Shown: one piece after another, positions 6,001 through 58,673 of the stretch
Numbering within the stretch: position 1 is the stretch's first letter
Layout: each line of letters opens with the position of its first letter
DNA from: an uncultured Bacilli bacterium
GTDB taxonomy: Bacteria > Bacillota_I > Bacilli_A > RF39 > UBA660
Reading direction: 5' to 3'
DNA length: 64,000 bases
NCBI GenBank assembly: GCA_944332475.1
Contig: CALVKA010000002.1
Span: 449-64,448, forward strand
Made by a program: the position numbers and the translations under genes
Notes under the pieces: model-generated
The model's database searches: none
What the model was told of the DNA's origin: nothing
What the model saw: the letters and a program-made list of their open reading frames with translations, nothing else

Positions 6001-7538
6001 TTAGCAAAGTACCAATAATCCTGTTCTTTCTTATTCATCTTTTTTAATAAAAGCTGATTAAACTGAAGCAATGCTCCACGCTTTCTTTCATGACCCAAAT
6101 AACTATTTTCATGTTCATTCCAAAAACGTTTACGATATAAAAAATAAAATAAATCTTTCTTATATTTTTTATTTAATTTTTCTGCATAAGAAACACCATA
6201 TTCTGATAATTCTTGATCAATATCTAACACTTCTTGATTACTAGCAGTAACATCACCAAGTAATGTAAAATACAAATTATCCGTTTTATTCATCAAATAA
6301 AAGGTCTCTAAGGTATCAAACATATTCTTAATTTTTTCTTTACTACCAATAATAGTCGGAATAACAACCATCGTTTTAGCCTCATCAGGAATTCCCTTAG
6401 AATAATCCAACTTTGGTAACGGATAAGTTGGTACAAACTTCATTAATATCTGATTAAAAATCTGCACAAATAACTGACTAATTGGAATTAATAACAAAAG
6501 AAAACCTAACCATCTCCAAGTAATAAAATAACTGGATAAAAAGAAACTAATACCAACAGTCGCAAAAACAACAACTAAAATATAAAGCAAAACACGAAAC
6601 ATATAATTTTTCTTAGGAAACAACTGAAATCCGATATGATACTCATTGCCATCGGCCTTATCTAATAACTCTTGTAAATAAGTAAGCTCATCCTTATGAT
6701 ACTTATTAGCTAATTTCAAAAGTTGACGACGATACAATACTTTAGATTCTGCTGTCATTTTAGAATAGACTTCATCTTCTAACAACAACTTTTCTGTTTT
6801 ACTAACCTTTTTAAATAAATCCTCTTCTGTAAATTCAAAAAATTCTTTTAAATCACCAAAAATATTAGAAATTAAAATATCATTATCAATATTCTTCTGA
6901 TATTCATTATTAATAATCTCTTTTAAACTAATTCTTTTTTCCTCTAATAATTCATTTAACTCCTTAAATAATCGATTACTTTTTGCTCCTACTGCCTTCA
7001 ACTGATTATTAATCTCGAATATATAATTAGCTTCTTCTTGAATAGAGATATGATCGCTTAAAAAATTAGACAATTCAATATCTTTTTCTTCTCTGCTTTC
7101 AATAATTCTTGCTACTTTTTCCTTATTAACTAAATTCCGATATTCTTCATGACACAAATCAGCAAGTCGTTTTGTATATAAAAATAACAAACAATTTTTT
7201 ACTCCAACAAGTTCCGGATAAGAAAAGGTAATTTTAGTCTTTTTTTGGTACTCCTTTAACTCAGAAACTAAAAGCCTAAAACTAATATTATAATTATTAC
7301 GTACAACAATTTCTTTTAAACAATAGAAAATACGATCATATTTCTTTAATTTTTTCATGATTTCTTTCTTATCATGAATAATATTAGTTTTATGCTCTAC
7401 CAACAAATAAAAATTGTCAATTAACCATTCATTTGTAATTCCTACATATTCTTTTTTCTTTGTCTTATCAACTAAAAAAGTATAATACTCATTAATATCC
7501 TCAAAATCCGTTAAAAAGTTCTTTACTAAGTTTGCCAT
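1..7538 (-). CDS. cyclic beta-1,2-glucan synthase-like giant protein (TM segments + GT84 glycosyltransferase + GH94 phosphorylase-type domain); C-terminus runs off the window
   Basis: ATG at 7538 follows AGGAGTGA plus a 7-nt spacer. The frame stays open to position 1 (about 2512 codons); the track lists no stop-bounded ORF in this frame. Hand translation gives GT84 motifs HERKRGALLQF, ITLDQDN, SHDLLEGNYLRCGY and TRHHRWARGDVQ (about 5400-6400). Hydrophobic TM stretches lie at about 4900-5400 and 6480-6620. GH94-type YQVSGAFGYRDQLQD...HQFEQGDVLHWWH lies at about 1000-1320. Confidence 0.85.
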   Translation of the reverse strand, partial: MANLVKNFLTDFEDINEYYTFLVDKTKKKEYVGITNEWLIDNFYLLVEHKTNIIHDKKEIMKKLKKYDRIFYCLKEIVVRNNYNISFRLLVSELKEYQKKTKITFSYPELVGVKNCLLFLYTKRLADLCHEEYRNLVNKEKVARIIESREEKDIELSNFLSDHISIQEEANYIFEINNQLKAVGAKSNRLFKELNELLEEKRISLKEIINNEYQKNIDNDILISNIFGDLKEFFEFTEEDLFKKVSKTEKLLLEDEVYSKMTAESKVLYRRQLLKLANKYHKDELTYLQELLDKADGNEYHIGFQLFPKKNYMFRVLLYILVVVFATVGISFFLSSYFITWRWLGFLLLLIPISQLFVQIFNQILMKFVPTYPLPKLDYSKGIPDEAKTMVVIPTIIGSKEKIKNMFDTLETFYLMNKTDNLYFTLLGDVTASNQEVLDIDQELSEYGVSYAEKLNKKYKKDLFYFLYRKRFWNEHENSYLGHERKRGALLQFNQLLLKKMNKKEQDYWYFANTLGDFSEEIRYVITLDQDNRLVLNTALNLVGAMAHPMNRPVLNKEGTKVVRGYGLMQPRVSLDIEATNKSLYSQIFAGIGGFDTYSAIVPNVYQDTFGEGSFIGKGIYDLKVFDQVLSNVFPDNLILSHDLLEGNYLRCGYVCDIELIDDFPSKFLTDTTRHHRWARGDVQIIGWLLPFVRNKQGKKVRNPINLLGKWKIFDNIVRMFLYPTLLLVLLFAIFASKTSPLWWIGLVLLEIAVPILFFLQSKVYQRESKKEKATVYYKHLLFGGKSLFLRAYIVLATLPFYTKLYLDAFFRTCYRLLISHNNLLNWVTAEDAAKHADKDFISYLRHFTFHLVFSFVLLIIGLAFFNVYACLLAIVFITAPFLLYYVSRDIDPQRKELKEKEVEEVQDIAYRTWCYFKDSLKEEYHYLIPDNYQENREPKLDLRASPTGIGFSLLSVVCAVDLEFISYEEGKDLISHILGTVDSLEKWHGHLYNWYDINSLKVMHPSFVSTIDSGNFVASLVVVREFLKSHGEQESRKLCDKLIRNANFKKLYTKRDVFSIGYDELEGKLSIYNYNKFASESRLTSYLTICFGDAPSKHWFCLDKSLTTYKGRKGLISWSGTSFEYFMPYLFMKNYPNTLLDESYHFAKFCQQDYMESVSRSLPWGISESAYNELDNSLNYKYRAFSTPYLKAKEDTENRIVIAPYASLMAMAMFPKDVYENFDKFKKLDMLGDYGFYESYDYDNRGVVKAFFAHHQGMSLVGLANYLKPGLIQNYFHQNVNIKTFDILLKEKVQVRTSIDMKMAKYKKYDYDKEAIENDIRTFNYISYLPEVSVLSNKKYCLLMNDRGDSFSRYRTLQLNRYRKVTEQDYGIFLYVKDLDTNYIWSNTYAPMNKKPDKYEVVFAADKIKFLRTDGKITTKTEIVVTKNHHAEIRKITFKNESEDIKRLELTTYTEPILSENMDDVSHRVFNSMFLTSKYESDSNSLIVRRKSRNDTNITSYMLHRLLIEEPMDEYSYETERKNFLGRNQTMQDPRGMHVKLSNTAGTNLDPVLSIRNTIEVLPNSSTTVYVITGFGRSMEQIHDIISFYNDDYSIEKAFKVSTLMNVINTKNMNLTGKEMRIFNIMLDYLYQTTRLSVTEERMDLLRRNALGQSGLWKFGVSGDRPIVLVEISDIADLTFVYDVLKAFEYYKNNSIFVDVVIINSESSQYAKIIKKEIDDELYRMYTLNSFYHIPGSVTVIDGNELTREEKSLLYMVARLAFPIHDHHSLQEEVEELQQHNKVSDYQKVETETHTESTSHERLTFDNGYGGFKNHGSEYVIYNPNTPAPWSNVIANKNFGTIVTNNGCGYTYAYNSGEFKITSWTNDMVANDKSEGFKFNGKIFDPMKCTHGFGYSILESENDELKKEITEFVAFEDTVKFYLVKLTNKLDKAVDVDIDFWINPVFGNFEEKTARHILTEFMGDDNYLKLRNVYSVTYGDVCVFMSTDLKIDSTINDKILVKDIHTRLHLDSKEESTCVFVLGSSMDSDTIPDMLTKFADVKKAKSELKRVKDYWKKTLNVVHVKSPDKSFNYMVNGWYLYQALASRIFARAGFYQVSGAFGYRDQLQDSMNVALVRPDQARRQILINAAHQFEQGDVLHWWHEKNHFGLRSRYKDDYLWLVYATSRYIEITNDYSILDEKVPYVVGPELSNYEQEKGISFSYTDEKVSLLDHCLTSLHLAMDSLGSHGLPLMGGGDWNDGMNKVGSKGNGESVWLGFFLYQVIDQFVSFMKVYNKRFKLKEFKDFNEKLKDNLNKKAWDGAYYLRAYFDNGDKLGSHENKECKIDLISQSYSILSGVALKDRIQKVITAVEENLVDDKNKIIKLLTPPFEKSLNNPGYIMNYPKGLRENGGQYTHATSWYIMALIQTGYYDRAFRYYQMINPVNRSLDSEAVNKYVVEPYVVAADIYSAERYPGRGGWTWYTGTAGWYYYVGIQEIVGLRKKGDTLTFKPNIPIAWDSFSLDYTYMDTIY

Positions 7539-7634: not shown

Positions 7635-7725
7635 TGGCGGAGTAGGAGAGATTTGAACTCTCGCGCCAGTTGCCCGACCTACACCCTTAGCAGGGGCGCC
7701 TCTTCAGCCTCTTGAGTACTACTCC
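7635..7725 (-). tRNA. tRNA-Ser(GCU): tRNA-Ser (anticodon GCU)
   Basis: Cloverleaf read by eye on the minus strand. Acceptor GGAGTAG/CTACTCC, anticodon loop CT-GCT-AA, long variable arm, encoded CCA. Confidence 0.85.
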
Positions 7726-7752
7726 ACATCTCAAATTGCATCCGCACATATA

Positions 7753-7781
7753 ATATTACATGACAACCAAGGAAAAGTCAA
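7753..7781 (-). promoter_or_regulatory. putative sigma-A promoter for tRNA-Ser(GCU)
   Basis: Minus strand reads TTGACT, 17 nt, TAATAT just upstream of the tRNA. Confidence 0.35.
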
Positions 7782-7800
7782 TATAAAATAAAGATTTTGA

Positions 7801-7823
7801 AAATAAAAAAACTCCATCGGAGT
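7801..7823 (-). terminator. weak hairpin plus U-run after tRNA-Glu
   Basis: Minus strand reads ACTCC-GAT-GGAGT followed by TTTTTTATTT. The stem is only 5 bp. Confidence 0.3.
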
Positions 7824-7834
7824 GAACTTCTAAT

Positions 7835-7911
7835 TGGTGACGGGTACGGAATTCGAATCCGTGAATGCTGCCGTGAAAGGGCAGTGTGTTAAGCCGCTTC
7901 ACCAACCCGCC
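7835..7911 (-). tRNA. tRNA-Glu(UUC): tRNA-Glu (anticodon UUC)
   Basis: Acceptor GGCGGGT/ACCCGTC, anticodon stem CTGCC/GGCAG, loop CT-TTC-AC, encoded CCA. Confidence 0.85.
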
Positions 7912-7914
7912 ATA

Positions 7915-7991
7915 TGGCGCCCCAACTAGGACTTGAACCTAGGACCCCTTGATTAACAGTCAAGTGCTCTAACCAACTGAGCTATTGAGGC
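7915..7991 (-). tRNA. tRNA-Asn(GUU): tRNA-Asn (anticodon GUU)
   Basis: D-arm TAGCTCAGTTGGTTAGAGC, anticodon stem CTTGA/TCAAG, loop CT-GTT-AA, encoded CCA. Confidence 0.85.
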
Positions 7992-7999
7992 ACTACTAA

Positions 8000-8076
<77 letters not shown>

Positions 8077-20717: not shown

Positions 20718-21413
20718 ATGAAAGAAAAAGAAAAATGGATTAGTATAAAAGGACTAATAATAGGCATAGTCGCTTTTTTAATATTTTATTTTAGTGCCTA
20801 CTTCCAACTGATACCAATTTTATTATTTAACATGGATCTAAATAATATAACAGGAGCCCAAAATGTTATGTTATCCACATTTTCAAACTGCGTATTATTA
20901 ATTCTTCTATTTTTAATCTTTAGAAAAGATTTAATAGAAGAATGGAAACGTTTCAGAAAAAACTTTTTAGAAAACATTGATATAGGAATTAAATATTGGT
21001 TAGTAGGACTTGGTATAATGATGATTTCAAATATTATCATTACATTCGTTATAAACCTAGGACAAGCAGCAAACGAACAAGCAGTGCAATCAATGATTTC
21101 TTCTCTACCTTGGCTCATGTTAATTAATGCAGGATTAATTGCTCCCTGTACAGAAGAAATTATATTTAGAAAAGGATTTAAAAAAGCCTTTCCAAACAAA
21201 TGGTTATTTATTATTTTATCTGCCCTAGTATTTGGTGCATTACATGTAGTAACAAGTATGACATCTCCAATAGAATTACTATATATCATCCCATATGGAG
21301 CATTAGGTGCAGCATTCGCATACATGTATCAAAAAACAGATACCATATTTACCTCCATTGCCATGCACATGTTTCATAATACAGCACTAATTTTATTATC
21401 TATATTATTATAA
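20718..21413 (+). CDS. CPBP family intramembrane glutamic endopeptidase (CAAX protease/Abi-like)
   Basis: 231 aa, multi-TM. Motifs EEIIFRKG, FGALH and HMFHN. Confidence 0.85.
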   Translation: MKEKEKWISIKGLIIGIVAFLIFYFSAYFQLIPILLFNMDLNNITGAQNVMLSTFSNCVLLILLFLIFRKDLIEEWKRFRKNFLENIDIGIKYWLVGLGIMMISNIIITFVINLGQAANEQAVQSMISSLPWLMLINAGLIAPCTEEIIFRKGFKKAFPNKWLFIILSALVFGALHVVTSMTSPIELLYIIPYGALGAAFAYMYQKTDTIFTSIAMHMFHNTALILLSILL

Positions 21414-22254: not shown

Positions 22255-22839
22255 ATGGAAATAAAAAATATAAAAGAAGAATTAAAAAAGAATCTTTCAC
22301 CATATCGATATGACCATAGTTTGCGAGTAGCCGACACAGCAAAAAAACTTGCCAAACACTACCACATCGATGAACCAAAAGCCTATATAACTGGATTATT
22401 ACATGATATCGCAAAAGAATTATCAGAAGAAGAAAATCAATACTGGATTAAAAAATATCACTTAAATAAAAATTTAAACGAAGAAAAAAATAGGAAAATA
22501 AAACACGCCGATATTGGAGCCGTCATCGCAAAAGAAAAATATCATTTAGATGAGAACTGTTGTAATGCCATAAAATATCACACCATCGGAAATAAAGATA
22601 TGGATACATTAGCAAAAATCATATATATTGCCGATAAAATTGGAAGAGAAAAAATACCAGAAGAATTAAAACCAGTAGAACAACTAGCCTATAAAAACAT
22701 AAATGAAGCATTATTATACTGTATAGAACAACAAGAAAAAAAGCTAAAAGAAAAAGGCATCAAAACACATAAAGATACTCAAGAACTATTAGAAAAACTA
22801 AAAAGAAAAAAGAACTCAATTAATAGAAAAGGGAATTAA
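22255..22839 (+). CDS. yqeK: HD-domain bis(5'-nucleosyl)-tetraphosphatase YqeK
   Basis: 194 aa. RYDHSLRV, LLHDIAKE, HADIGA, KYHT and IIYIADKI. Confidence 0.8.
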   Translation: MEIKNIKEELKKNLSPYRYDHSLRVADTAKKLAKHYHIDEPKAYITGLLHDIAKELSEEENQYWIKKYHLNKNLNEEKNRKIKHADIGAVIAKEKYHLDENCCNAIKYHTIGNKDMDTLAKIIYIADKIGREKIPEELKPVEQLAYKNINEALLYCIEQQEKKLKEKGIKTHKDTQELLEKLKRKKNSINRKGN

Positions 22840-22840
22840 T

Positions 22841-24466
22841 ATGAATAATGAATTAAGAAAAGACCTTACACCAAAAGAAACAATAAAAAAAATAAAAAAA
22901 ATACTTAAAGAAAATAAAATCAATATTAAAGAAAATAAAACTAAATGTCTATACAAAAATTTTTACTCTACAAGAATCGAAATAAAGGGATTTTATCATT
23001 TAGGAACAAATGGAAAAGGAATAACTAAAGATTTAGCACTAGCTTCAGCATATGCCGAACTCATGGAACGGTTACAATCAAAAATGTTAATTAATACTTA
23101 TTATTTAGGAAAAGTAAAAAACTTAATTAGTTATAATGATGAAACAATCAAAAAAAATTATATCGTTAAAAATTTAAAGATTTTAACCAGTTTTTTTGAA
23201 AGCGATGTTAATTTACAAGATTTTTTTAAAAAGAACAATAAATTTAGCATCGTTAGTAAATATAAAAATTTAATAACTGAAAAAGAAGAATATCTTCCAT
23301 CAAAACTAATAAATGCTACTTCCTTTTCAAATGGATTATGTGCAGGGAATAGCTTCTATGAAGCAATTAATCAAGGAATATGTGAAATTTTGGAAAGAAA
23401 TTCATATCAAGAAATATTAAACAAAGAAATAATCCTTGATAATATCATAATTGAAAAAGATTTACCTATCTACAATAAAATTAAAGCAATAAAAGAAAAT
23501 GGATTCAACATCCAAATAAAAGATTGTTCTTTAAAAAAATATCCTGTAGTTGGCGTATATATAACAAATAAAGACAAAACAAAATATATATTCACAATTG
23601 GCAGTGATCCTAACATAAACATTGCAGTTCAAAGATGCTTAACAGAAGCATTCCAAGGATTAAAAAACAAAAAAGATTTAATTTTTAAAATGAAGAAAAC
23701 AAATAATACCTTTTATGAATTAAACAACGAAGAAAGAAAAATGAACTGGTTTAAAAACTATTCATCAAATAATGGAATTCATCCCACAAAAATATTTCAA
23801 TCAAATAAATTTATCAATTATAAAAATCTAAAATATTTTAGTAATATAAAAACAAATAAAGAAATATTTAATTTTTTGCTTAATATTATCAAAAGCAATA
23901 ATCTTTCCATATATATAAAGGACTTTTCGTATTTAGGTTTTAACACTTATAAAATATATATTCCCATTCTATCAAATATAGATACCATTAATAATAATGA
24001 AAAAGACTTAATTAAAAATTATGATTTTTTAAAATCTATCTATTTTAATTTAAATAATTATAACAATAAAAAAGATTTAAAGAAAGCAAGTAACATAATT
24101 GAAAGAAGTCTAAAAAGCGACAAAAGTTTATTTATAAATTTAGGTAACTACTTTCACGCATCAAACTATATAAAAACAAATTATAATAATATAACTTTTG
24201 AATTTTTATATATATTGATAAAATGTAAAATTCATGAAAATATCAATTATAAACTAATAAAAAACAAAAATTTAATAAATTATATTAAATCAATTAATTC
24301 CAACAATAAATATGAATATATAATCAATGATTTAAATTTATTATTACCAACTTGTCCAAATTGTACTACATGTCCCATAAAAAAGAAATGTTGTTACAAG
24401 ACTTGGAAACATATTAACAATGTTTTAATTTTCAAAGAAGAAGAATATTTTCACAAAAATAAATAA
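22841..24466 (+). CDS. stand-alone YcaO-domain protein with Cys-rich C-terminal tail
   Basis: 541 aa. YcaO signatures GKGITKDLALASAYAELMERL and GLCAGNSFYEAINQGICEILERNS. The tail reads TCPNCTTCPIKKKCCYK. The ATG lies 1 nt after the yqeK stop. Confidence 0.75.
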   Translation: MNNELRKDLTPKETIKKIKKILKENKINIKENKTKCLYKNFYSTRIEIKGFYHLGTNGKGITKDLALASAYAELMERLQSKMLINTYYLGKVKNLISYNDETIKKNYIVKNLKILTSFFESDVNLQDFFKKNNKFSIVSKYKNLITEKEEYLPSKLINATSFSNGLCAGNSFYEAINQGICEILERNSYQEILNKEIILDNIIIEKDLPIYNKIKAIKENGFNIQIKDCSLKKYPVVGVYITNKDKTKYIFTIGSDPNINIAVQRCLTEAFQGLKNKKDLIFKMKKTNNTFYELNNEERKMNWFKNYSSNNGIHPTKIFQSNKFINYKNLKYFSNIKTNKEIFNFLLNIIKSNNLSIYIKDFSYLGFNTYKIYIPILSNIDTINNNEKDLIKNYDFLKSIYFNLNNYNNKKDLKKASNIIERSLKSDKSLFINLGNYFHASNYIKTNYNNITFEFLYILIKCKIHENINYKLIKNKNLINYIKSINSNNKYEYIINDLNLLLPTCPNCTTCPIKKKCCYKTWKHINNVLIFKEEEYFHKNK

Positions 24467-24601
24467 ACAAATCATAAAAAAATTATAACTATTTAATAAA
24501 TAAAAAAGATTGCTCCCTGTAATTACAAGTCACAATCCTCTAATACAAAACTAACCTAAACCTATGCAATAAATCATTAATATAATTTAATTTTCATATT
24601 C

Positions 24602-26362
24602 CTACCTTGTTTTCTTTTTTACTAATCCTGGCTTAACAATTCCCTGATTACCATCAACAGTCAAATTTTTTTCATCCCATATTTTCTTCATAGCATTTCC
24701 ACCAATACCAATAACACACGGAATTCCCAATTCCCTTGCTATAATGGCAGCATGACATAAAAAACCACCAACCGCAGTCACAATACCAGATGAATGTGAA
24801 AGAATATTCATCCACTCAGGATCCGTATACCAAGCCATCAAAATATCTCCATCATTCCAATCTGTTAATTGATCAATATATCGTGCATTAACAAATCTAG
24901 CAGGACCAGATACCACTCCTGGAGATGAAGGAATCCCCCTATATACACCTTCTTCAATATCGTGATTAAGAGATTGAGATATATCTAATTTTGAAGTAAC
25001 AGGGCGATATTGCAACATTACTAAATTATTATTTAATATCATCCACTCAAAATCAGCAACATCGTTATCATCCCGGGCAACTCTTTGCTGATATTCTAAC
25101 AATTCTTTACCAACATCTCCAACATTACAAACAAGTTTCGTTTCTGGCCCCTGGCCATTTTCCCAAATTTCCCTATTAGGAGAAACTTTACCAGAAACCA
25201 ACTTTTCCCCATTACCAGACACATACTCCATATAGCCACTATTATTATTTTTACCAATCCATACACCAGCATACTCGGGCTCAACAAAATCTTGGATAAT
25301 TACAGCCATATTAGGTTGACCCAAATTGTTAGTAGCAATATATCGCTGTAATCTAGAATTATTTTTTGAATTAATAACTTTATCAATATTATCACTTAAA
25401 GAATCGAAATCAACATCTAAATAAGAATCAAACATCCCTGCAAAAGAATTATTTTTACCATCTTCAATATCAGCAGAGCTTCTTACTGAATAATGTCCAT
25501 TTTTCATTAATTCAGAGTGCTCATTTACATCAAAATTAGAAGCAGTAACAGGAATGACAAAAGTTCTAGGGATTTCCACACCGCAAGCCCTTAATACAGT
25601 AAGTCCATAAGCTTTACCACCAACTAATTTTACAAGTTCATAATCCATACCACACAAATAACATTCAGCCAATTCATCGATAGAAATTAAATCTTTAGAA
25701 CACAACTCTGCAAATTTCTTATACATAAATGGACTTTCAAATTCTACATCAAGAGGTATCAAATATCTTTTTATATAATCATCATGCAATGCTTCCAAAC
25801 TAGGTTCTATAATTGTTTGATAATAGCCATGTTGCTTATCTTGCCATTCTTTTAAAACCCTATATTTTTGTAATAAATCATCATATAAATATGAATCATC
25901 TAAGCTTGCTTCTTTTAATACCTTTTCTCCATCTACAGATAAATTTCCTTTATCAAATCTAGATATTACTTCAAGATATCTATCACCATATTTATTTTTT
26001 ATAGCTTCAATTAAATCTGTTGAAAAGGAAGCTAATTCATCTAAAGATTCTAATATACCATAATATACTAAACCTCTCGTAAACGTACGGTAATAATCTT
26101 CTCCTTTTTCTAAATTATTAGCACTTTTAATATATAAGTTTGTTTTATTTCTAAGTTCTTGCATAATAGTATCGAGTTCTTTTGCAGACACAGTATCATT
26201 TCTAATAGAAATATACTGCTTTATTTCATCCATTAAATCATGATCCTTTGCACATTCTAAAAGAACAATTGTAGACCATGTGGATAAGTTCTTAGGAAAA
26301 AAATTATCACAATAATTAAACTTAAAATCCCTTAATTCTTCTAATGATACAGCATTACTCAT
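24602..26362 (-). CDS. PEP synthase/PPDK-like phosphotransferase (ATP-grasp nucleotide domain + swivelling phospho-His domain) with unknown N-terminal domain of about 240 aa
   Basis: 586 aa. GGKAYGLTVL, RSSADIEDG..NSFAGMFDSYL and a C-terminal PEP-utilizer mobile domain GGFLCHAAIIARELGIPCVIG. Confidence 0.75.
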   Translation of the reverse strand: MSNAVSLEELRDFKFNYCDNFFPKNLSTWSTIVLLECAKDHDLMDEIKQYISIRNDTVSAKELDTIMQELRNKTNLYIKSANNLEKGEDYYRTFTRGLVYYGILESLDELASFSTDLIEAIKNKYGDRYLEVISRFDKGNLSVDGEKVLKEASLDDSYLYDDLLQKYRVLKEWQDKQHGYYQTIIEPSLEALHDDYIKRYLIPLDVEFESPFMYKKFAELCSKDLISIDELAECYLCGMDYELVKLVGGKAYGLTVLRACGVEIPRTFVIPVTASNFDVNEHSELMKNGHYSVRSSADIEDGKNNSFAGMFDSYLDVDFDSLSDNIDKVINSKNNSRLQRYIATNNLGQPNMAVIIQDFVEPEYAGVWIGKNNNSGYMEYVSGNGEKLVSGKVSPNREIWENGQGPETKLVCNVGDVGKELLEYQQRVARDDNDVADFEWMILNNNLVMLQYRPVTSKLDISQSLNHDIEEGVYRGIPSSPGVVSGPARFVNARYIDQLTDWNDGDILMAWYTDPEWMNILSHSSGIVTAVGGFLCHAAIIARELGIPCVIGIGGNAMKKIWDEKNLTVDGNQGIVKPGLVKKKTR

Positions 26363-26364
26363 AT

Positions 26365-27912
26365 TTACACCTCTTTATAATTAATACTAAAATCCTTTCT
26401 TTTCAAATAAAAATAATCACATCTATTTAATAAGTCAGACTTAATTCTATTAACTTGACAAACTTTTTTATTTTGATTAAATTTTTTTATAATTGCTTCC
26501 ATTTTTTCTCTTTTATCACCATAAAATCTATACGTAATATTAATATTACTACAATCACAATCTATTTCGTCACAAATTTGAGAATTTCTAGATAGCACAA
26601 AAACATTTAAACCAAACAAATCAATGTATTTAAAATGACTTATAAAATATAAAGTCTTATATATATTTATATAATATTCATTAGGATAACCAATCATAAA
26701 AGTAGAAGCAACAACTATGCCACTAATATAGAAATTTTTTAACACACCTTTTATACTTTTTATATCAATTCCCTTATTCATATGTTTTAATATTCTTTTA
26801 TTATAACTCTCTATTCCAAAAGATACAAATGTACAACCACTTTTAGCTAATTGTTTAACATTATCTATATCTAAATATACCTCGCTAATTCTTGTTTCCA
26901 TCATCCAACATATATTTATTTTATTACTTATTAAATAATTAGCAAAATCCAAAATAATGTTAGGAGGTATACACTCATCAACAAACACAATTTTATCAAA
27001 TCTATTATTATTATACATTTCTTTTACCATTTTAAAAATTTTCTTCACATTCATTGGCATATAATTTCCATAATGATAATAATGAGAACAAAACTTACAT
27101 CTATGATAATAACATCCATAATTTAATAACAAAGGCATTATTCTATCTCTTGATAAATATTTTTCTAAAGAAACACTTGAATAATCTAAAAAATAATTTT
27201 CCACATTATCCAAAATATTTTTTTCTATAAACCGAGTTTTATTCCTTACAATAATATTTATTAAATCAGCATTCTTACCTAAGCAATATAAAATTGCATT
27301 TTGAAAAGTCTTAAGATGATTAAAAATTATAATTGCATTTACAAAATCGACCTTATTAATTAATTCATCACAATTCCGATTTATTTGAGTTAAATAATTT
27401 CCACCCCAAATAATTTTCACACTTTTATTAACACATTTTATTCTATTAGATAAAGCAATAGCCATAGGAACTTGAAAACCATATGACACATTAACAAAGA
27501 TAATATCTTTATCATGAAAATCATCCAAAGGAAATAATTCAATAAAGTTTTTTATTTTATTACTGACAATTATAAAATCATCTATATTTTTTATAGGATA
27601 TTGAAAATTAAAGCCACGATTATTCTGATAAATTATACCAAATTGTGACAAATATTTATTAACTGCTTCAATAAACTTATGATTTGCACTTAACAAGTCT
27701 TTGGAGCTATCTTTGATATCATATTTAATTTTTTCGATATCTTCACCAAATTTTTCAAAATTTGCATTAACAAGAAGATTGTTTAAAAAATAGTCAGTGT
27801 AATCATACATTTTGTAGTTAACTTTATTATTTTTTAAATATGTGCTATAAAGTATATTTTTTATATCTGGATAACTAAAAGTAATTCCTGGCAATGTATA
27901 TAAATAAATCAT
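26365..27912 (-). CDS. B12-binding-domain-like radical SAM protein (class B-like)
   Basis: 515 aa. Rossmann-like N-terminal half (IIFVNVSYGFQVPMAIALSNRIK...IIWGGNYLT). Cys triad GCYYHRCKFC has CX4CX2C spacing. FVSFGIESYNKRILKHMNKG matches the radical SAM core. Confidence 0.65.
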   Translation of the reverse strand: MIYLYTLPGITFSYPDIKNILYSTYLKNNKVNYKMYDYTDYFLNNLLVNANFEKFGEDIEKIKYDIKDSSKDLLSANHKFIEAVNKYLSQFGIIYQNNRGFNFQYPIKNIDDFIIVSNKIKNFIELFPLDDFHDKDIIFVNVSYGFQVPMAIALSNRIKCVNKSVKIIWGGNYLTQINRNCDELINKVDFVNAIIIFNHLKTFQNAILYCLGKNADLINIIVRNKTRFIEKNILDNVENYFLDYSSVSLEKYLSRDRIMPLLLNYGCYYHRCKFCSHYYHYGNYMPMNVKKIFKMVKEMYNNNRFDKIVFVDECIPPNIILDFANYLISNKINICWMMETRISEVYLDIDNVKQLAKSGCTFVSFGIESYNKRILKHMNKGIDIKSIKGVLKNFYISGIVVASTFMIGYPNEYYINIYKTLYFISHFKYIDLFGLNVFVLSRNSQICDEIDCDCSNINITYRFYGDKREKMEAIIKKFNQNKKVCQVNRIKSDLLNRCDYFYLKRKDFSINYKEV

Positions 27913-28898
27913 TCCAATTTACTAATTCTTTCTATTACTATCTTAGAAAATTTTTCATCACTAATCCAAACTTTTATGAACATAATATCATTCATTTTAA
28001 ATTTTTGAATACCAGGAAGGTTACTAAGTAAATCATAACATTTATTGAAGTCTTTTTCTTTTTTAAAAATTAAACTTATAAAATTACTTTCTGATTTAAT
28101 AATCATAAACTTTTTATTATGCTTTAATGTTTTATAAATTAAATCTCTATTACTTTTAATATATTCGATAGTATTATTAAAAATATTCAACATTTTTTTA
28201 TCATTTAACAATTTTATCATAAATCTAGCCGAATAGGTTGAAATCGAATGTGGAGCTATAAACGTATTTCGTAATCCGCTTATTTCTTTTTTAGTAATTA
28301 AATAGCCAATTCTAAAACCAGATGCAAAATAAGTTTTAGACATACTTCTAATTATCAATATTCTATCATTTTTTAAAGCCAAATCGACTAAACCACTTTT
28401 CTTATTTGAAAAGGCAATATAGGCTTCATCAATCAATAAAGAACCATTAAAGATTAATAAAATATCTTCTATTTGCTTATCAGTAAATCTTTCACCAGAA
28501 AACCATCTAGGAGAAGATATACATAACAAATCATCTTTTGTACTTTTAATTTTTCTTAATTGATTTATAAAATCATTAGCAGTTAAACAACTAATCATCT
28601 CAGAATTTACATTATTTAATCCTATATTTCGAGTATATAGACCAAACTCCGGCAAAGAAATAAATATTTTATTCCAAATTTTCAAATTTAAAATTACCGT
28701 AATTAGCTGACTACTACCCGCCCCTAAATAAATATATTCTTTATTAATATTTAACTTTTCTGCAATTGTTGTTAATAAAGGATCAGATAATTGATTATTC
28801 ATATCGTAATTAAAATTACCATCAACAAAATCCATCTGATACTTTTTTAACCATTTTTTTAAAACTTTATTATCTTTCCATATTGAAGCTGAAGCCAT
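27909..28898 (-). CDS. PLP-dependent fold-type I enzyme, HisC/CobD-like aminotransferase/decarboxylase family
   Basis: 329 aa. IDEAY and PLP-lysine motif SMSKTYFASGFRIGY are present. The usual NPxNPTG stretch reads SSPRWFSGE. Confidence 0.65.
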   Translation of the reverse strand: MASASIWKDNKVLKKWLKKYQMDFVDGNFNYDMNNQLSDPLLTTIAEKLNINKEYIYLGAGSSQLITVILNLKIWNKIFISLPEFGLYTRNIGLNNVNSEMISCLTANDFINQLRKIKSTKDDLLCISSPRWFSGERFTDKQIEDILLIFNGSLLIDEAYIAFSNKKSGLVDLALKNDRILIIRSMSKTYFASGFRIGYLITKKEISGLRNTFIAPHSISTYSARFMIKLLNDKKMLNIFNNTIEYIKSNRDLIYKTLKHNKKFMIIKSESNFISLIFKKEKDFNKCYDLLSNLPGIQKFKMNDIMFIKVWISDEKFSKIVIERISKLE

Positions 28899-28916
28899 AT
28901 TTACCTCCTTTTGTCA

Positions 28917-29042
28917 TTAGCAAGTGTCAGAACAGTAATTACCGCCCAACTCTGCTAAAGTTGTATCATTATTTGTTGCAAATAAATTTATTACTTTTTT
29001 TCTTGAAAAAATTTTTTTCACAGCAGCAACAATTTTTTTCAC
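28917..29042 (-). CDS. candidate RiPP precursor peptide (41 aa)
   Basis: GTG at 29042 follows AAGGAGGTGAT plus a 7-nt spacer. Product: (M)KKIVAAVKKIFSRKKVINLFATNNDTTLAELGGNYCSDTC. It lies 31 nt after the rSAM stop and 18 nt before the PLP gene. The longer 74-aa track ORF overlaps the rSAM 3' end and has no SD. Confidence 0.6.
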   Translation of the reverse strand: MKKIVAAVKKIFSRKKVINLFATNNDTTLAELGGNYCSDTC

Positions 29043-29073
29043 TCTATCACCTCCTTTATTATAAGTTATAACC

Positions 29074-30261
29074 CTACAAATGATTTTCGACTCTTTGCTT
29101 TGCCGCAATACATACTCTGCTATTATTATTTTCTTTAGCAATTAATTTAAGAAACTCATATCGTTTTTTACTTAACCAAATAGTATTAAAATCTTGTTTT
29201 AACACATTACCCAAACAATAACTTTTTATAAATGGGCAACAATATACATCCCCATTATAATCAATAGTACATTTACCTATACCCGCCGAACACTTCCAAT
29301 GTTCAGTTTGCAAAAATTCTTTTTCACCATTATCCAATAAATACACCTTGCTATTACAATTCTCATCTGGCATATCTGCGTATAAAAGTCTTTGACCTTT
29401 ATCTATTTTTTTTACTTCCTTTTTTAAATTATCCATAAAATAATCATGCTGTTTTTGTGTAAGTTTCATACTAGATGTAGCATTTCCAGAATCGATTAAA
29501 TTAGATATTTGTATTTTATATACACCTATCCTACATAATAAGCCATATAATTGAGGAAGTTCCTGATAATTAAGAACTGAAAGCACCGAATTAGTAGTAA
29601 CTCTATATCCCTTAGAAACTATTAATTTTATATTTTGAATCGTTTTTTTAAAACTACCATTTCCTCTTATGATATCGTGATCTTTTTCCATACCATCAAT
29701 ACTTATAAAGAAATCTAATTTTTCGACTGGCAAGTATCCTAAAATCTTAACTAGTTTTTTTTCAAAAGTGTCCAATAATAAAGCATTAGTGAAAATATTA
29801 ACCTTAATATCATTTTGTATTAACAAGGCAACTATCTTAGGAAGCGAAGATACTAGTAATGCTTCTCCCCCAGTAACAGTAACTTCCATAACGTTACTAT
29901 TTATTAAACTACTGGTAATTTTTTTTAATTCTTTTTCACTAAGCTCTTTATTATCTAGTCTTCCTAAATAACAATGCTTACATTTCAAATTACATTTATT
30001 TGTAATTTTCCACTGTACTTTTAAAGGAAAATCCAAATTTACATTATTATCATAATATTCTATTTCTTCGATTTCTTTTTTTAATTTTTTTAGTTCTCTA
30101 TTTAAGTTAAATCTGCTCATATGTAGTTCTTTAGCAGCTTTTGAAAAATCAGTAGTAGTATAATATGAATTAATTATATCAAAAGTATACTCATTAACTA
30201 CATAATATTTATTATTAATATTAATAATAAAGCGATCATCATCAATTTTCCTTTTTTTCAT
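29074..30261 (-). CDS. radical SAM peptide-modifying enzyme with truncated (Twitch-like) auxiliary-cluster domain and possible N-terminal RRE
   Basis: 395 aa. CNLKCKHCY (CX3CX2C). C-terminal CSAGIGKCTIDYNGDVYCCPF, but no CX2CX5CX3C block. An N-terminal segment of about 70 aa precedes the rSAM core. Confidence 0.75.
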   Translation of the reverse strand: MKKRKIDDDRFIININNKYYVVNEYTFDIINSYYTTTDFSKAAKELHMSRFNLNRELKKLKKEIEEIEYYDNNVNLDFPLKVQWKITNKCNLKCKHCYLGRLDNKELSEKELKKITSSLINSNVMEVTVTGGEALLVSSLPKIVALLIQNDIKVNIFTNALLLDTFEKKLVKILGYLPVEKLDFFISIDGMEKDHDIIRGNGSFKKTIQNIKLIVSKGYRVTTNSVLSVLNYQELPQLYGLLCRIGVYKIQISNLIDSGNATSSMKLTQKQHDYFMDNLKKEVKKIDKGQRLLYADMPDENCNSKVYLLDNGEKEFLQTEHWKCSAGIGKCTIDYNGDVYCCPFIKSYCLGNVLKQDFNTIWLSKKRYEFLKLIAKENNNSRVCIAAKQRVENHL

Positions 30262-31519
30262 ACACAGCTTCTCCTATAATTCCATCTATATACAATGTAC
30301 AAAGAAAATCCCTAATATTTTCAATTCTATCAAATTTTGCTTCCAACTCGCCGCCAGTTTTATTTCCATCACAATCTAACAAAATTTTATAACCATTTTT
30401 ATCCACCTTCCTAAGTGGAACTTTAATAATCAAAAAATCCTGCTTTTCTCTACGAATTTTCCCACATTTTAAAATCAGCTTTTTATGTTTTATATTCTGC
30501 CAAGTTTTTTTTAATATACTAATTAGCAAAGCATCACACGAATTATCAAAAAACAAAAAATTCCCTTCAGCATGACACCCACCCTTACAACGTTCAAAAT
30601 CTTTACATAATCTACAAAGATTAGGTAACCAGTCAAATTTCTTATATGTTTTTAAATATTGAGAACTGGAAATCTGACTAAAATTTTTTTTAAAAGCATT
30701 ACCTAATACATAATTTGATGAAGGGCATATTTTGACATCTCCATTAGGTTCAATACTAAAAAGTGATATACCAGCCCCACAACTATGGCATAAGTATCTA
30801 TATCTAGCATTACATGAACATGCAGAAATACAATTACTTATTGAAATATATTGATATTTTTTGCTTAATTCATCAATACTTTTTAAATATAAATCAGGAT
30901 CTATAATCTGATCATTTGATGCAGCTCCTAAATAATTTAATCTACCAAAAGATAACTTAATATTTCTTTTCTTTGCAAACTTTACAATAAAAGCTAAATT
31001 ATCAAAATCAATATTATCTTTAGTTAAAGTACAATTAATATTAAGATTAATTTGAGGATATTTTAGTATTATTTTATCAATATTATCTTTTAACACTTTA
31101 AACACACCAGGCACGCCACAAAGTTTATCATGTATTTCAGGATTACCATGTAACGATATACCAACCGTATTAACATAATTCAAAATTGCTTCGTTTTTAA
31201 ATAAATCTATACCGTTTGTTATTAAGGTTTGTTCAAAACCTAGAGAATATCCATATTTCAACAATTCCAAAATGTATGGATAAGTCAAAGGCTCTCCACC
31301 TGTATAATTAATAGAAATAACTCCCATTTTTTTAAACTCACGTAATAATTTTTTTGCTTCTTCAAAATCCATATTAATTCTTTTAGAGTCTGATTGTGAA
31401 CAAAACGAACAATTTAAATTACAACAACCAGTAACTTTAAAATAAACTATAATAGGCGTTTCAAGGGTATCTAAATTATATTTAACATTAAGATTAACAG
31501 ATTTCAAAAAAGTTTTCAT
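30242..31519 (-). CDS. radical SAM/SPASM peptide-modifying enzyme with C-terminal PqqD-like extension
   Basis: CNLNCSFC (CX3CX2C) near the N-terminus. Full SPASM block CHSCGAGISLFSIEPNGDVKICP...CRLCKDFERCKGGC. A tail of about 95 aa (ILLDCDGNKTGGELEAKF...FLCTLYIDGII) follows. Start placed at ATG 31519 rather than the track's TTG 31543. Confidence 0.8.
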   Translation of the reverse strand: MKTFLKSVNLNVKYNLDTLETPIIVYFKVTGCCNLNCSFCSQSDSKRINMDFEEAKKLLREFKKMGVISINYTGGEPLTYPYILELLKYGYSLGFEQTLITNGIDLFKNEAILNYVNTVGISLHGNPEIHDKLCGVPGVFKVLKDNIDKIILKYPQINLNINCTLTKDNIDFDNLAFIVKFAKKRNIKLSFGRLNYLGAASNDQIIDPDLYLKSIDELSKKYQYISISNCISACSCNARYRYLCHSCGAGISLFSIEPNGDVKICPSSNYVLGNAFKKNFSQISSSQYLKTYKKFDWLPNLCRLCKDFERCKGGCHAEGNFLFFDNSCDALLISILKKTWQNIKHKKLILKCGKIRREKQDFLIIKVPLRKVDKNGYKILLDCDGNKTGGELEAKFDRIENIRDFLCTLYIDGIIGEAVYEKKEN

Positions 31520-31523
31520 TCTT

Positions 31524-31631
31524 CTATTTTTCCTTTTTATCAATTAAAATAATTCTACATTGTGTCATATCAGGACGTAACTCTTTAATATAAAGTTTAT
31601 TTTTTGTCTTTCGAAAAAAAATTTTAAACAT
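31524..31631 (-). CDS. candidate 35-aa small ORF translationally coupled to the SPASM gene
   Basis: GAGGTGG plus a 5-nt spacer, then ATG at 31631. Product: MFKIFFRKTKNKLYIKELRPDMTQCRIILIDKKEK. The TAG stop lies 4 nt before the rSAM ATG. Below the track's size cut-off. Confidence 0.35.
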   Translation of the reverse strand: MFKIFFRKTKNKLYIKELRPDMTQCRIILIDKKEK

Positions 31632-31673
31632 TCAAACCACCTCAAAAATAAAATAATATCTCTTTATTTATGT

Positions 31674-31700
31674 AGTATAATATTTTTAAGTATTTGTCAA
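31674..31700 (-). promoter_or_regulatory. putative promoter of the rSAM/precursor operon
   Basis: Minus strand reads TTGACA, 15 nt, TATACT. The spacer is shorter than optimal. Confidence 0.3.
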
Positions 31701-31758
31701 CCAAAAATCAATAATATAAATGAAAAGAACCCAAAATTTGAGTTCTTTTATTTTCTTA

Positions 31759-31833
31759 TGGAGCGGATGAGGGAAATCGAATCCCCGTCACAGCCTTGGC
31801 AAGGCCGTATTCTAACCACTAAACTACATCCGC
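31759..31833 (-). tRNA. tRNA-Gly(GCC): tRNA-Gly (anticodon GCC)
   Basis: Acceptor GCGGATG/CATCCGC, anticodon loop TT-GCC-AA, encoded CCA. Confidence 0.85.
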
Positions 31834-31836: not shown

Positions 31837-31910
31837 TGGAGGGGCCTACCGGATTTGAACCGGTGATCAGGGTGTTGCAGACCCACGCCTTACCACTTGG
31901 CTAAAGCCCC
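31837..31910 (-). tRNA. tRNA-Cys(GCA): tRNA-Cys (anticodon GCA)
   Basis: Acceptor GGGGCTT.../...AGGCCCC, anticodon loop CT-GCA-AC, encoded CCA. Confidence 0.8.
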
Positions 31911-33749: not shown

Positions 33750-34325
33750 CTATCCCTCAATAAATCCATTATCAGTAAAGAAATCGACGTAAGTAGCGGT
33801 ATCAACTAAACCATTAATCATATCAACAACTTCACCATCAGAAACCACAATCAATAGTGGCGTACCATAGCCATTACTAAAGAAATCATCAGACTCTAAT
33901 AATTTACTATTATCATCATCATCCATTTCATCAACATTCACATTATAGATAGTAAAATCATATTGATAAGAAATATGACGTAAAATTGGTTCTGCAATTT
34001 GACAAAATCCACAAGTAGGTCTTGAGAATAATACAACAGCATTCTCACTCCCATTATATAAATCTAAATATTGGTCTGTATCAATTTCTTCAAAAGCTTT
34101 TTGTTCATCTTCTGAAACACTATCACTTTCTTCTTGAGCTCTAGCAATTAGCTGATCAGCCTCACTATCAGAATCATCAGTTGTCTCTGTCGTACTATCT
34201 GTAGTAGAATTCTTTCCCGCACCAGAAGTAACAGCAGAGGAAGCAAAATAACATAATGCACAAAGTAAAAGAATAACAATAGTAATACATAGACCAATCA
34301 AAATCTTCTTCGTTCTTTCGCTCAT
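33750..34325 (-). CDS. membrane-anchored thioredoxin-fold protein
   Basis: 191 aa. N-terminal TM, acidic Ser/Asp/Glu linker, CxxC motif TCGFCQ, then a thioredoxin-like GTPLLIV stretch. Confidence 0.65.
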   Translation of the reverse strand: MSERTKKILIGLCITIVILLLCALCYFASSAVTSGAGKNSTTDSTTETTDDSDSEADQLIARAQEESDSVSEDEQKAFEEIDTDQYLDLYNGSENAVVLFSRPTCGFCQIAEPILRHISYQYDFTIYNVNVDEMDDDDNSKLLESDDFFSNGYGTPLLIVVSDGEVVDMINGLVDTATYVDFFTDNGFIEG

Positions 34326-51375: not shown

Positions 51376-51705
51376 AATATCACCTTTCTCCTTACAAATT
51401 TAATTTAAAATACGATTTATAAATAGAAATTGACTCGTACATAATCACTTCGATATATAGCTTTCATATAATAATCACCTCTAATAAAAAAGAGCCTCAT
51501 CCAAAGGACGAAAGCTCGTGGTACCACCTTATTTTATAGAATTAAAATTCTACCTTAACATCTTAACGCGATGAACGGAACAACTTACTATTAGTTCAGA
51601 AATTCTGCTCCACTGCTACCTTCAAAATAGTCCACTAGTTATTTTCACCATCCATAACCTCTCTAAAAGTTTTCTATTTTTACTCCTCAGTTTCCCTGCA
51701 TATAT
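51376..51705 (-). promoter_or_regulatory. T-box riboswitch leader of valS (with intrinsic terminator about 51486-51520)
   Basis: Minus strand shows AGAGAG (GA/K-turn region), a putative specifier region GAAGGUAGC containing GUA (Val), the T-box core AAUAAGGUGGUACCACGAG, then a hairpin and UUUUUU. Confidence 0.8.
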
Positions 51706-58468: not shown

Positions 58469-58471
58469 AAG

Positions 58472-58548: not shown

Positions 58549-58593
58549 ATGTCACGTAACCAAATTTATATAAATGTAAATTGATTAACAAAA

Positions 58594-58669: not shown

Positions 58670-58673
58670 AAAC

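Follow-up and report, generated by a model that had tools for sequence, protein, structure and literature searches.

The stretch of DNA studied here (the window) covers 64,000 nucleotides from an uncultured Bacilli bacterium of the RF39 lineage (contig CALVKA010000002.1, positions 449 to 64,448) and contains, between yqeK and a pair of tRNA genes, a compact block of eight genes which is a conserved gene cluster and very probably modifies two tiny ribosomal peptides. The block was pointed out in a model-generated annotation made from the sequence (the initial annotation), and the open reading frames (ORFs), spacings and overlaps described there were reproduced by our ORF map of the 20.5-34 kb region. 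The yqeK gene (22255-22839, plus strand) is followed on the same strand by a YcaO gene (22841-24466, 541 residues) whose start lies 1 nt past the yqeK stop. YcaO converges on an operon of seven minus-strand genes which, in the direction of transcription, comprises pepX, SPASM1, SPASM2, pepY, a pyridoxal phosphate (PLP) enzyme, a B12-like (class-B-like) radical S-adenosylmethionine (rSAM) enzyme and a PPDK-like phosphotransferase. The first of these, pepX, is a small ORF of 35 residues (31524-31631), and SPASM1 (30242-31519, or up to 31543 with an alternative TTG start at that position) overlaps the second rSAM gene, SPASM2 (29074-30261), by 20 nt. The 41-residue pepY (28917-29042) begins with GTG and is followed by the PLP gene (27909-28898, 329 residues), which overlaps the B12-like rSAM gene (26365-27912, 515 residues) by 4 nt. 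A gap of 2 nt separates the latter from the PPDK-like gene (24602-26362, 586 residues). On the side where the operon starts, the block is flanked by tRNA-Gly (31759-31833) and tRNA-Cys (31837-31910).

The domains that had been assigned to these genes were confirmed with Pfam and NCBIfam, namely YcaO, PPDK_N with PEP-utilizers, Radical_SAM with SPASM, Aminotran_1_2, and an rSAM protein resembling PhpK and the C-methyltransferases of RiPPs (peptides made on the ribosome and modified after translation). The block had also been called extra AT-rich, and its GC content of 24.95%, compared with 30.1% in the remaining window, is indeed below that of all 377 other 8.8-kb windows, the minimum of which is 28.4%. 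Neither the block nor its flanks were found to contain an exporter, protease, regulator or recombinase.

Full-length relatives of the PPDK-like protein number in the hundreds, at identities down to 40%. When an alignment of these relatives was used to scan one genome per species, a total of 57 loci was obtained (numbered L0xx in the following), of which 49 encode full-length PPDK-like relatives, all of them in uncultured metagenome-assembled genomes (MAGs) from animal and human guts. The six enzymes of the window were mapped onto the ORFs of all loci by phmmer and the peptides were sought in six frames. The same gene set was observed in about 29 of the 49 species-level genomes, in the orders A, A', B and L061. 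Type A, the order of the window, occurs in eight species. Type A' was found in fifteen species and has the order PLP enzyme, B12-like rSAM, pepX, SPASM1, SPASM2, PPDK-like and pepY with a convergent YcaO, and L061 is a variant from which the PLP and B12-like rSAM genes are missing. In the minimal type B (five species), a small NrdG/MoaA-like rSAM, SPASM1, PPDK-like, pepY and YcaO lie on a single strand. The reciprocal association was checked by independent look-ups seeded with SPASM1 homologues, which returned the orders SPASM1, SPASM2, split PPDK-like gene and pepY (L070), PPDK-like, pepY, YcaO, SPASM1 and SPASM2 (L073), and a peptide with an acidic leader followed by SPASM1-like, SPASM2-like and B12-like rSAM genes up to the contig end (L071). 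The MAGs that bear the cluster derive from humans, rabbits, sheep and other hosts and belong to uncultured small-genome gut Bacilli and Clostridia.

The gene orders of the cluster thus number at least five and its genomic contexts are unrelated, with flanking genes that vary by type, and YcaO adjoins it in all 26 loci where the contig is long enough, again in varying contexts and orientations. Since homologues co-localise in about 29 species-level genomes under such varied orders and contexts, we consider the cluster to be a conserved unit and not a chance neighbourhood. This bears out the initial annotation in two respects, as it had proposed a RiPP-like unit that includes the convergent YcaO, and had named the recurrence of the gene set together with a conserved short peptide in other genomes as its test. 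The eight genes are a unit across uncultured gut Bacilli and Clostridia, in which pepY, SPASM1, the PPDK-like gene and YcaO form an invariant core, and SPASM2, the pair of PLP enzyme and B12-like rSAM, and pepX are accessory modules. The suggestion that all of these enzymes act around one precursor in an architecture not yet described stands as far as the novelty of the architecture is concerned, but the set splits into core and modules.

Hardly any credence can be given to the alternative that the genes are neighbours by chance, with YcaO as a housekeeping gene transcribed with yqeK, the PLP enzyme as HisC, the PPDK-like protein as a fragment of phosphoenolpyruvate (PEP) synthase and the short ORFs as noise. 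The immediate succession of yqeK and YcaO on one strand would suit it, as would the best NCBIfam names, which resemble primary metabolism. However, all of these scores lie 2- to 10-fold under the equivalog cut-offs, the same set occurs in about 29 genomes without yqeK, and the YcaO is basic, unlike the acidic group that modifies uL16 (PMC13063428). The PPDK-like protein moreover lacks the PEP/pyruvate domain, and both peptides are under coding constraint, as described below.

In the window, pepY reads (M)KKIVAAVKKIFSRKKVINLFATNNDTTLAELGGNYCSDTC, with a basic leader and the C-terminal core G-G-N-Y-C-S-D-T-C, and a strong Shine-Dalgarno (SD) sequence, AAAGGAGGTGA, lies upstream of its GTG start at 29042. 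It is annotated as a 41-residue gene in several assemblies. Homologues were found in all cluster types by a six-frame regular-expression search on the fetched loci, and in these the only invariant positions are G(-4), C(0) and D(+2), so that the core can be written as a short peptide ending in G-x-x-x-C-x-D(-x-C). Type A peptides end in LGGNYCSD(T/S/V/W)C, those of type A' in MAG(N/H)G(N/D)CSD(C/Q/A)C and those of type B in LGGNYCQD, and the endings of L061, L070, L073 and L071 are FGGDYCGDVC, MGGNYCSDLC, CGGNYCSDVC and TVGPYCNDVC respectively. The peptide of L071 (L071:6625-6735) has a strongly acidic and unrelated leader and belongs to a distant cluster, the SPASM1 of which is 32% identical and the contig of which stops short of any PPDK-like or YcaO gene. 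As the same core ending is found under this acidic leader, the C-terminal motif and not the leader appears to be the conserved functional part. A protein-database search with pepY matched only pepY itself, short peptides being poorly indexed in such databases.

The second peptide, pepX, had been listed in the initial annotation as a 35-residue ORF without comment, beside what was taken to be a single tiny precursor. We found instead that it is conserved, preceded by an SD sequence (GAGGTGG, 6 nt upstream) and subject to coding-type substitutions, which makes it a second conserved peptide of the cluster. In the window it reads MFKIFFRKTKNKLYIKELRPDMTQCRIILIDKKEK, with a basic N-terminal region, and its homologues share the motif EL(K/R)P(E/D)MTQCR(I/V)(I/V). 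It lies directly upstream of SPASM1 in L061 and wherever the contig of a type A or A' locus extends over the site, and metagenome assemblies carry it as an annotated gene. A comparison of 17 unique DNA versions of pepX placed 888 of 1367 substitutions on codon position 3, and the codon differences comprise 702 synonymous and 335 non-synonymous ones. Two sets of pepY sequences gave 302 of 455 and 342 of 470 differences at the third codon position, again with more synonymous than non-synonymous differences. The third-position bias and the synonymous excess indicate that both pepX and pepY are translated and under purifying selection.

On reading the two sequences together, a common basic N-terminal pattern, (F)xxKK...(L/V)(I/Y)x(L), can be recognized in pepY and pepX, as would be expected if one recognition domain reads both peptides. 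Neither peptide is matched by any NCBIfam or Pfam model. In four type A' genomes (L034, L038, L040 and L048, at about 6380-6600), no stop codon lies between the B12-like rSAM ORF and pepX, which is in frame with it; this could be a natural fusion of enzyme and precursor or a case of read-through. The generic feature of RiPP clusters, a short precursor with leader and core beside modifying enzymes, is found here for pepY as well as for pepX.

The most unusual member of the invariant core is the PPDK-like protein. It matches only the PPDK_N and PEP-utilizers domains of Pfam, and contains neither a PEP/pyruvate domain nor a rifampin-binding domain. The AlphaFold2 (AF2) model (pLDDT 87.6, pTM 0.86) predicts an all-helical N-domain (residues 1-240), an ATP-grasp domain and a swivelling phospho-His domain (GGFLCH, H537), with which the model ends, and H537 is invariant in 45 sequences. 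Its top sequence matches in the PDB are RPH-Lm, a rifampin phosphotransferase (RPH), and PEP synthases, and the top Foldseek matches are PPDK (1kbl) and RPH (5hv3). All NCBIfam scores are far from the respective cut-offs (PEP synthase and PPDK models, 164 against 598 and 63 against 843 bits; RPH, 124 against 999; PigC, 128 against 1300). The likeness to RPH, PigC/RedH and PEP synthase/PPDK thus consists of the ATP-grasp and the swivelling phospho-His domain with its invariant catalytic histidine. PEP synthase and PPDK, in contrast, have a three-domain set whose PEP/pyruvate TIM barrel is missing here, and in RPH and PigC the substrate domain lies between the ATP-grasp and His domains, whereas the extra domain of the present family is N-terminal, helical and 240 residues long. 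A search with the N-domain among 1.84 billion cluster representatives gave 60 representatives (E <= 1e-3), almost all of 545-640 residues, and judging from these sequences the N-domain defines a small dedicated family. To our knowledge, no member of the PEP-utilising His-swivel superfamily is known as a RiPP maturase, and our literature searches found none assigned to RiPP maturation.

The PPDK-like gene is always directly downstream of an rSAM gene, whichever rSAM this is. A distant clade (33-37% identity; L051, L053, L056 and L058) extends this association, as its members lie directly after, and often overlap, a gene for a StrB-like rSAM which is recognized by the KxxxW maturase model with 159 bits. 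In two of the four loci, KGDGW peptides with the ending DNLIDNSRF(S/A)KGDGW(K/S)K, which is the streptide motif, were found upstream (L053:7579-7686 and L056:7570-7674). The gene pair is followed by an M16-like peptidase in L051 and L053. The position of this clade beside StrB-like genes suggests that PPDK-like proteins are general partners of rSAM enzymes that mature peptides. The resemblance to streptide (StrA/StrB) concerns these relatives only, since the peptides of the window have no K...W motif. An electrostatic complementarity between an acidic PPDK-like protein and the basic leaders was also considered; it applies to most members but not to all, and we do not rely on it.

Rather than being a maturase, the PPDK-like protein might be a self-protection or regulatory kinase that inactivates or controls the product, in the way that RPH inactivates rifampin, or it might assist the rSAM enzymes at the expense of ATP. 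Modification of the peptide would then be left to the rSAM enzymes and YcaO alone. We regard this as unlikely. It draws on the resistance enzyme rifampin phosphotransferase being among the closest solved relatives, on the placement of the gene behind whichever rSAM gene is present, and on orphan copies, some of which lie in contexts resembling defence islands. In L011 (1658-4800), L012 and L031, the gene before the orphan PPDK-like gene, whose product is 41% identical and has the same N-domain, encodes an HTH_3 (helix-turn-helix) regulator and the gene behind it a hydrolase of the metallo-beta-lactamase (MBL) fold, in surroundings with AbiEii, a type I restriction-modification system and a NERD helicase, and no pepY-like peptide was found nearby. 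On the other hand, the PPDK-like gene belongs to the invariant core and is translationally coupled to maturase genes, its family-specific N-domain occurs almost only in proteins of PPDK-like length, and many orphans adjoin remnants of decayed clusters.

Two SPASM-type rSAM enzymes are encoded in the window. SPASM1, which is present in every intact locus, has the Radical_SAM and SPASM domains of Pfam, a CxxxCxxC motif and a complete set of SPASM cysteines, and its AF2 model (pLDDT 94) gave SkfB, SuiB, BlsE, PqqE, CteB and anSME as top Foldseek matches, with PqqE as the top PDB match by sequence. SPASM2 had been noted simply as a second rSAM enzyme; the rSAM assignment was confirmed, but the protein also matches SPASM and carries an auxiliary-cluster domain which is truncated and Twitch-like. 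The pattern CxAG..C...CC...C is present in the SPASM2 alignment and the CxxCx5Cx3C motif is absent; the closest PDB sequence is SkfB. For both proteins the best NCBIfam model is MftC (107 and 91 bits against a cut-off of 265). The scores of PqqE (81 against 381) and of the sactipeptide and ranthipeptide maturases PapB (53 against 340), SkfB (56-72 against 300), AlbA (61 against 850) and StsB (58-68 against 625), as well as SCIFF, also lie below the cut-offs.

Domains that may bind the leaders were found in both enzymes. The C-terminal 80 residues or so of SPASM1 (residues ~345-425) have a beta-beta-beta-alpha-alpha-alpha order in the AF2 model, a topology by which the domain would be similar to a RiPP recognition element (RRE). 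SPASM2 has an N-terminal extension of about 80 residues with an RRE-like or HTH-like appearance and weak HTH matches in residues 18-67. A comparison of the two candidate domains with hhalign gave a probability of 4%.

SPASM2 is present where pepY carries an extra x-C after the aspartate (types A and A', L061, L070, L071 and L073) and absent in type B, where pepY ends at the aspartate, which amounts to six arrangements against one. The idea that pepX is the substrate of SPASM2 was weakened by L073, which has SPASM2 and no recognizable pepX.

The ranthipeptide and sactipeptide systems (PapB/freyrasin, CteB, SkfB, AlbA) and QhpD resemble the present cluster in having a short Cys-containing core behind a leader and SPASM/Twitch maturases with an RRE-like domain, here a predicted one, and SkfB, CteB and SuiB are top structural and sequence matches of the cluster rSAM enzymes. 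The invariant Cys and Asp of pepY form the pair that PapB and QhpD join; in pepY the thioether is putative. The present cluster differs from these systems in its obligatory YcaO and PPDK-like enzymes, the small core of 5-8 residues, the second precursor, the C-terminal position of the RRE-like domain in SPASM1, and the equivalog scores of its rSAM enzymes, which are far below cut-off.

The similarity to MftC and PqqE brings in a different outcome of the pathway, in which pepY would serve as a sacrificial scaffold for a peptide-derived cofactor or small molecule, after the logic of pyrroloquinoline quinone (PQQ) or mycofactocin: the C-x-D(-x-C) unit would be cross-linked, excised and tailored, and the product would stay in the cell. 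In the mycofactocin (MftC/MftB) and PQQ (PqqE/PqqD) systems, as is predicted here, an rSAM/SPASM enzyme acts with an RRE on the C-terminal end of a small peptide, MftC is the best NCBIfam match of both rSAM/SPASM proteins and PqqE the top PDB sequence match of SPASM1. No exporter or immunity gene was found in the window or among the recurrent flanking families of 28 loci, as an intracellular product would have it, and PLP aminotransferases normally require a free amine or keto group. The S51 and M16-like peptidases and the MBL-fold protein beside family members recall PqqF and PqqB. Yet the MftC and PqqE scores are far below the cut-offs, no PqqB/C or MftD/E/F homologues or other genes of these pathways were found in the cluster, the core motif is different and its tyrosine is not invariant. 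The patchy distribution, the neighbouring serine recombinases and phage-like genes, the atypical composition and the frequent decay fit an accessory or competitive trait better, and we consider a cofactor pathway improbable.

YcaO is the third enzyme of the invariant core. The protein of the window matches PF02624 with E = 3.8e-38 and keeps the ATP/Mg-site motifs; its best NCBIfam model is that of EcYcaO (NF040716, 166 bits against a cut-off of 700) and its closest PDB entry E. coli YcaO (4q84). EcYcaO is thus the closest solved and curated relative, and the two proteins have in common the conserved ATP-site motifs and the lack of an E1-like, ocin-ThiF or TfuA partner. They differ in score, in the association of the present YcaO with a small peptide and rSAM enzymes, and in isoelectric point, which is 8.6-9.5 across 23 YcaO proteins of the cluster family (9.5 in the window) compared with 4.4 for EcYcaO. 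A further difference is a Cys-rich C-terminal motif in type A and B proteins, CPNCxxCPxxxxCC in the window (24340-24466) and CP(N/D)CxxCxxxxxC(x)YKxW across these types, a sequence that might coordinate a metal or an Fe-S cluster. Type A' proteins lack the motif and appear to have long N-terminal extensions instead.

No E1-like or ocin-ThiF partner was found among the cluster proteins (SagD-family model, 58 against 219 bits), and no TfuA domain in any of them (McrA-type YcaO model, 56 against 365), so the partners that define the azol(in)e-forming thiazole/oxazole-modified microcins (TOMMs) and the YcaO-TfuA RiPPs are both missing. EcYcaO itself is a stand-alone backbone thioamidase which acts directly on the ribosomal protein uL16 without TfuA, and putative RiPP clusters are mentioned as the location of those group members that are not acidic (PMC13063428, with reference to its Fig. 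S33). A link to RimO and S12 methylthiolation, which follows from the old annotation of EcYcaO, was dropped since the same paper reassigns the enzyme to uL16 thioamidation.

The PLP enzyme and the B12-like rSAM form an accessory module. The former belongs to Aminotran_1_2 (hisC, 125 bits against 277; CobD, 82 against 291), has conserved SxSK (Schiff-base lysine) and IDEAY motifs, and its gene is always translationally coupled to the B12-like rSAM gene in type A and A' loci. The latter matches the PhpK family (82 against 600 bits), the RiPP C-methyltransferase model TIGR03975 (63 against 282), ArsL and other P/As-methylase models. It had been described as an rSAM enzyme with a B12-like domain; its best matches are class-B families as proposed, but the match to the B12-binding domain PF02310 is weak (E = 0.018, 15 bits against 32), and the invariant motif is GC(Y/F)xxxCxFC, that is CX4CX2C. 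The pair is found in types A and A', with at least the B12-like enzyme in L071, and is absent from type B, L061 and L073. An apparent connection between Ser(+1) of the core and this pair was abandoned, as the cores of L070 and L073 read CSD in the absence of those genes, and L047, which has a different, GntC-like PLP enzyme as an extra gene, has a CQD core.

The presence of a PLP enzyme of class I/II type beside a short precursor is reminiscent of the daptides. Here, however, the pepY cores end in Cys or Asp and not in Thr, no companion dehydrogenase or decarboxylase/reductase set was observed in the cluster, and the PLP enzyme is HisC/CobD-like and absent from several variants. The PhpK match, together with the ArsL and other P/As-methylase matches, would also be compatible with a phosphonate or phosphinate pathway in which a PhpK-like P-methyltransferase would act together with a PEP-utilising enzyme and with an aminotransferase. 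This reading is extremely improbable, as PhpK scores 82 bits against 600, the PPDK-like protein has no PEP-binding domain, no PEP mutase or phosphonopyruvate decarboxylase was found in the cluster, and type B, L061 and L073 do without the B12-like rSAM and PLP genes.

Taken as a whole, these observations lead us to regard the cluster with considerable confidence as a RiPP-type maturation system, and it is probably, though with less certainty, a RiPP-type biosynthetic gene cluster that moves horizontally and encodes two precursor peptides, each with a leader. More tentatively, the PPDK-like protein may be a new type of RiPP maturase which passes phosphate from ATP by way of His537 to a ribosomal peptide or to an intermediate generated by rSAM chemistry and which, together with the EcYcaO-like stand-alone YcaO and an rSAM/SPASM enzyme, installs an undescribed, class-defining modification on the G-x-x-x-C-x-D core of 5-8 residues, with a sister clade that tailors streptide-like KGDGW peptides; we would place this proposal somewhat short of an even chance. 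No curated family-specific NCBIfam or Pfam cut-off for a characterised RiPP or cofactor system was reached by the cluster proteins, and full-text literature searches gave no description of the architecture, Fig. S33 of PMC13063428 being the one possible earlier notice. This agrees with the initial annotation, which could name no class for the enzyme combination. What is new here within the framework of RiPP clusters is the precursor family and the obligatory enzyme type.

A possible course of maturation can be outlined. Binding of the basic leader motif of pepY and pepX would fall to the RRE-like domain at the C-terminus of SPASM1 and to the one at the N-terminus of SPASM2. SPASM1 would then form a radical cross-link at the invariant cysteine, the likeliest form being a thioether from Cys-S to the C-beta of Asp within C-x-D, an assignment by analogy that we hold as doubtful. 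QhpD joins Cys and Asp likewise. For PapB, the formation of Cys-Asp and Cys-Glu thioethers is described in two reports (PMC9413430, PMC10739248). SPASM2 may add a second link from the C-terminal cysteine of the x-C ending, which appears slightly better placed than the first assignment and still falls below even odds. YcaO would spend ATP on the activation of a backbone amide within the core, which would become either a thioamide, as formed by EcYcaO, or a Cys-derived azoline, and the chance that one of these two is formed is about balanced. Sulfide for the formation of a thioamide is available in the gut.

The PPDK-like enzyme would be autophosphorylated from ATP at His537 and pass the phosphoryl group to the peptide or to a modified intermediate held by the helical N-domain. 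By analogy with the logic of RPH and PigC, this transfer would produce a phospho-ester, acyl-phosphate or enol-phosphate leaving group, and the two steps taken together could go either way. The PLP enzyme and the B12-like rSAM would act as an optional tailoring pair, and removal of the leader and export would depend on enzymes encoded elsewhere, an adjacent S51 peptidase being frequent in relatives. None of the chemical steps is rated above an even chance and some fall clearly below it, and confidence that the whole step-by-step chemistry is right is low.

Several observations weigh against this interpretation. Tyr(-1) and Ser(+1) of the pepY core are variable, so that conservation does not extend to the hydroxyl groups that a phosphotransferase would most obviously use as acceptors, and a Cys(0) engaged in a thioether cannot also form an azoline. 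No RRE was detected by sequence (Pfam at E <= 10 and PDB profile searches), the candidates being supported by predicted topology. Because every family-specific model scores far below its cut-off, the chemistry cannot be transferred by homology, and since the variants represent about 5-7 independent lineages, the correlations between enzymes and core positions are suggestive only. Furthermore, the window has no exporter, immunity gene or leader protease, and orphan or decayed copies occur in several genomes (L021, L024, L029, L041 and L052).

Should the RiPP interpretation hold, the PEP-utilising His-swivel phosphotransferases would join the RiPP toolbox as a new enzyme superfamily, and a precursor family with a very small core would be added. 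The EcYcaO-like branch of YcaO enzymes, which is poorly understood, would also gain a peptide substrate that is amenable to genetics. The modular series from minimal type B through the intermediate L073 and L061 to the full type A would form a natural set for assigning enzymes to core positions. As the cluster often lies beside recombinase or phage-like genes, its product may matter for competition or signalling in gut communities that are not culturable so far.

Decay of the cluster was seen in at least four copies (L024, L029, L041 and L052), and about twelve orphan PPDK-like genes were found. The signs of decay in these four loci and in L070 are truncated YcaO or SPASM fragments and a split PPDK-like gene, and decaying copies show the pepY variants ELDGNYCQD and GGNGNCSDK at the peptide end. 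Many of these orphans may be all that is left of clusters that have disappeared.

Large serine recombinases were found 1-4 kb from the cluster in six loci (L028:14061-15071, L032:29-1939, L039:14053-15747, L040:507-2261, L043:13213-14862 and L054:14194-15837), and L073 is flanked by phage-like genes (DNA_pol_A/DUF5906 and Phage_T7_tail). These neighbours suggest that the cluster is carried on mobile elements. An IMG/VR scan for carriage by phages found no relatives, and the cluster adjoins a tRNA in only about 5 of 23 loci.

The initial annotation had seen no exporter, leader protease, regulator, integrase or flanking repeat; this is correct for the window, but relatives of the cluster often have an S51 peptidase, SAM methyltransferases and large serine recombinases nearby. 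A Peptidase_S51 protein of the dipeptidase E/cyanophycinase family (Pfam E = 2.6e-30) lies near the cluster in eight loci, represented by L030:12951-13796 with homologues in L018, L026, L034, L035, L039, L048 and L054. The gene adjoins YcaO in the seven type A' loci and lies about 3 kb from the opposite end of the cluster in L018; none was found within the 64-kb window. S51 enzymes cleave at Asp, a specificity which may be set beside the invariant Asp of the pepY core. A TehB/TPMT-like methyltransferase was observed near the cluster in six loci, and a UbiE/BioC-like one in L032 and L061.

In the intergenic region that precedes pepX, a terminator-like hairpin (31749-31723) found in a terminator scan closes the tRNA-Cys/Gly unit, and a promoter-like pair can be read on the minus strand, with TTGACA at 31700-31695 and TATACT at 31679-31674 separated by 15 nt. 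The promoter is assigned by resemblance to the consensus only, its spacer being short and the pair therefore not listed by a scanner that requires 16-18 nt. An Rfam scan of the 20-34 kb region found tRNAs only and no riboswitch or leader RNA. No convincing direct repeats flank the block, and the window holds no recombinase. A 21-nt inverted match (86%, containing AAAAGAACTCAA) occurs at both borders of the block (22799-22819 and 31738-31758), where one copy falls on the final part of yqeK and the second on the terminator hairpin that follows tRNA-Gly. Judged by its sequence, it may be the remnant of a terminator split at an insertion site, or a chance match in AT-rich DNA. A reading of the window as a defence system was set aside, as the PADLOC matches are generic viperin-like ones to the rSAM cores only.

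Two further genes lie close to the block. An Rce1/CPBP-like intramembrane protease, of a family often linked to bacteriocin immunity, is encoded 1.4 kb to the left (20718-21413, plus strand), and a PedC-like protein with a thioredoxin fold 2 kb to the right (33750-34325, minus strand). Both are probably unrelated to the cluster, since neither is kept beside it in other genomes. Elsewhere in the window, a T-box leader (126 bits; 51501-51705, minus strand) and tRNA arrays of 13 and 4 genes (58392-59577 and 7635-8076, both minus strand) were found, which are ordinary features of a low-GC Bacillota chromosome.

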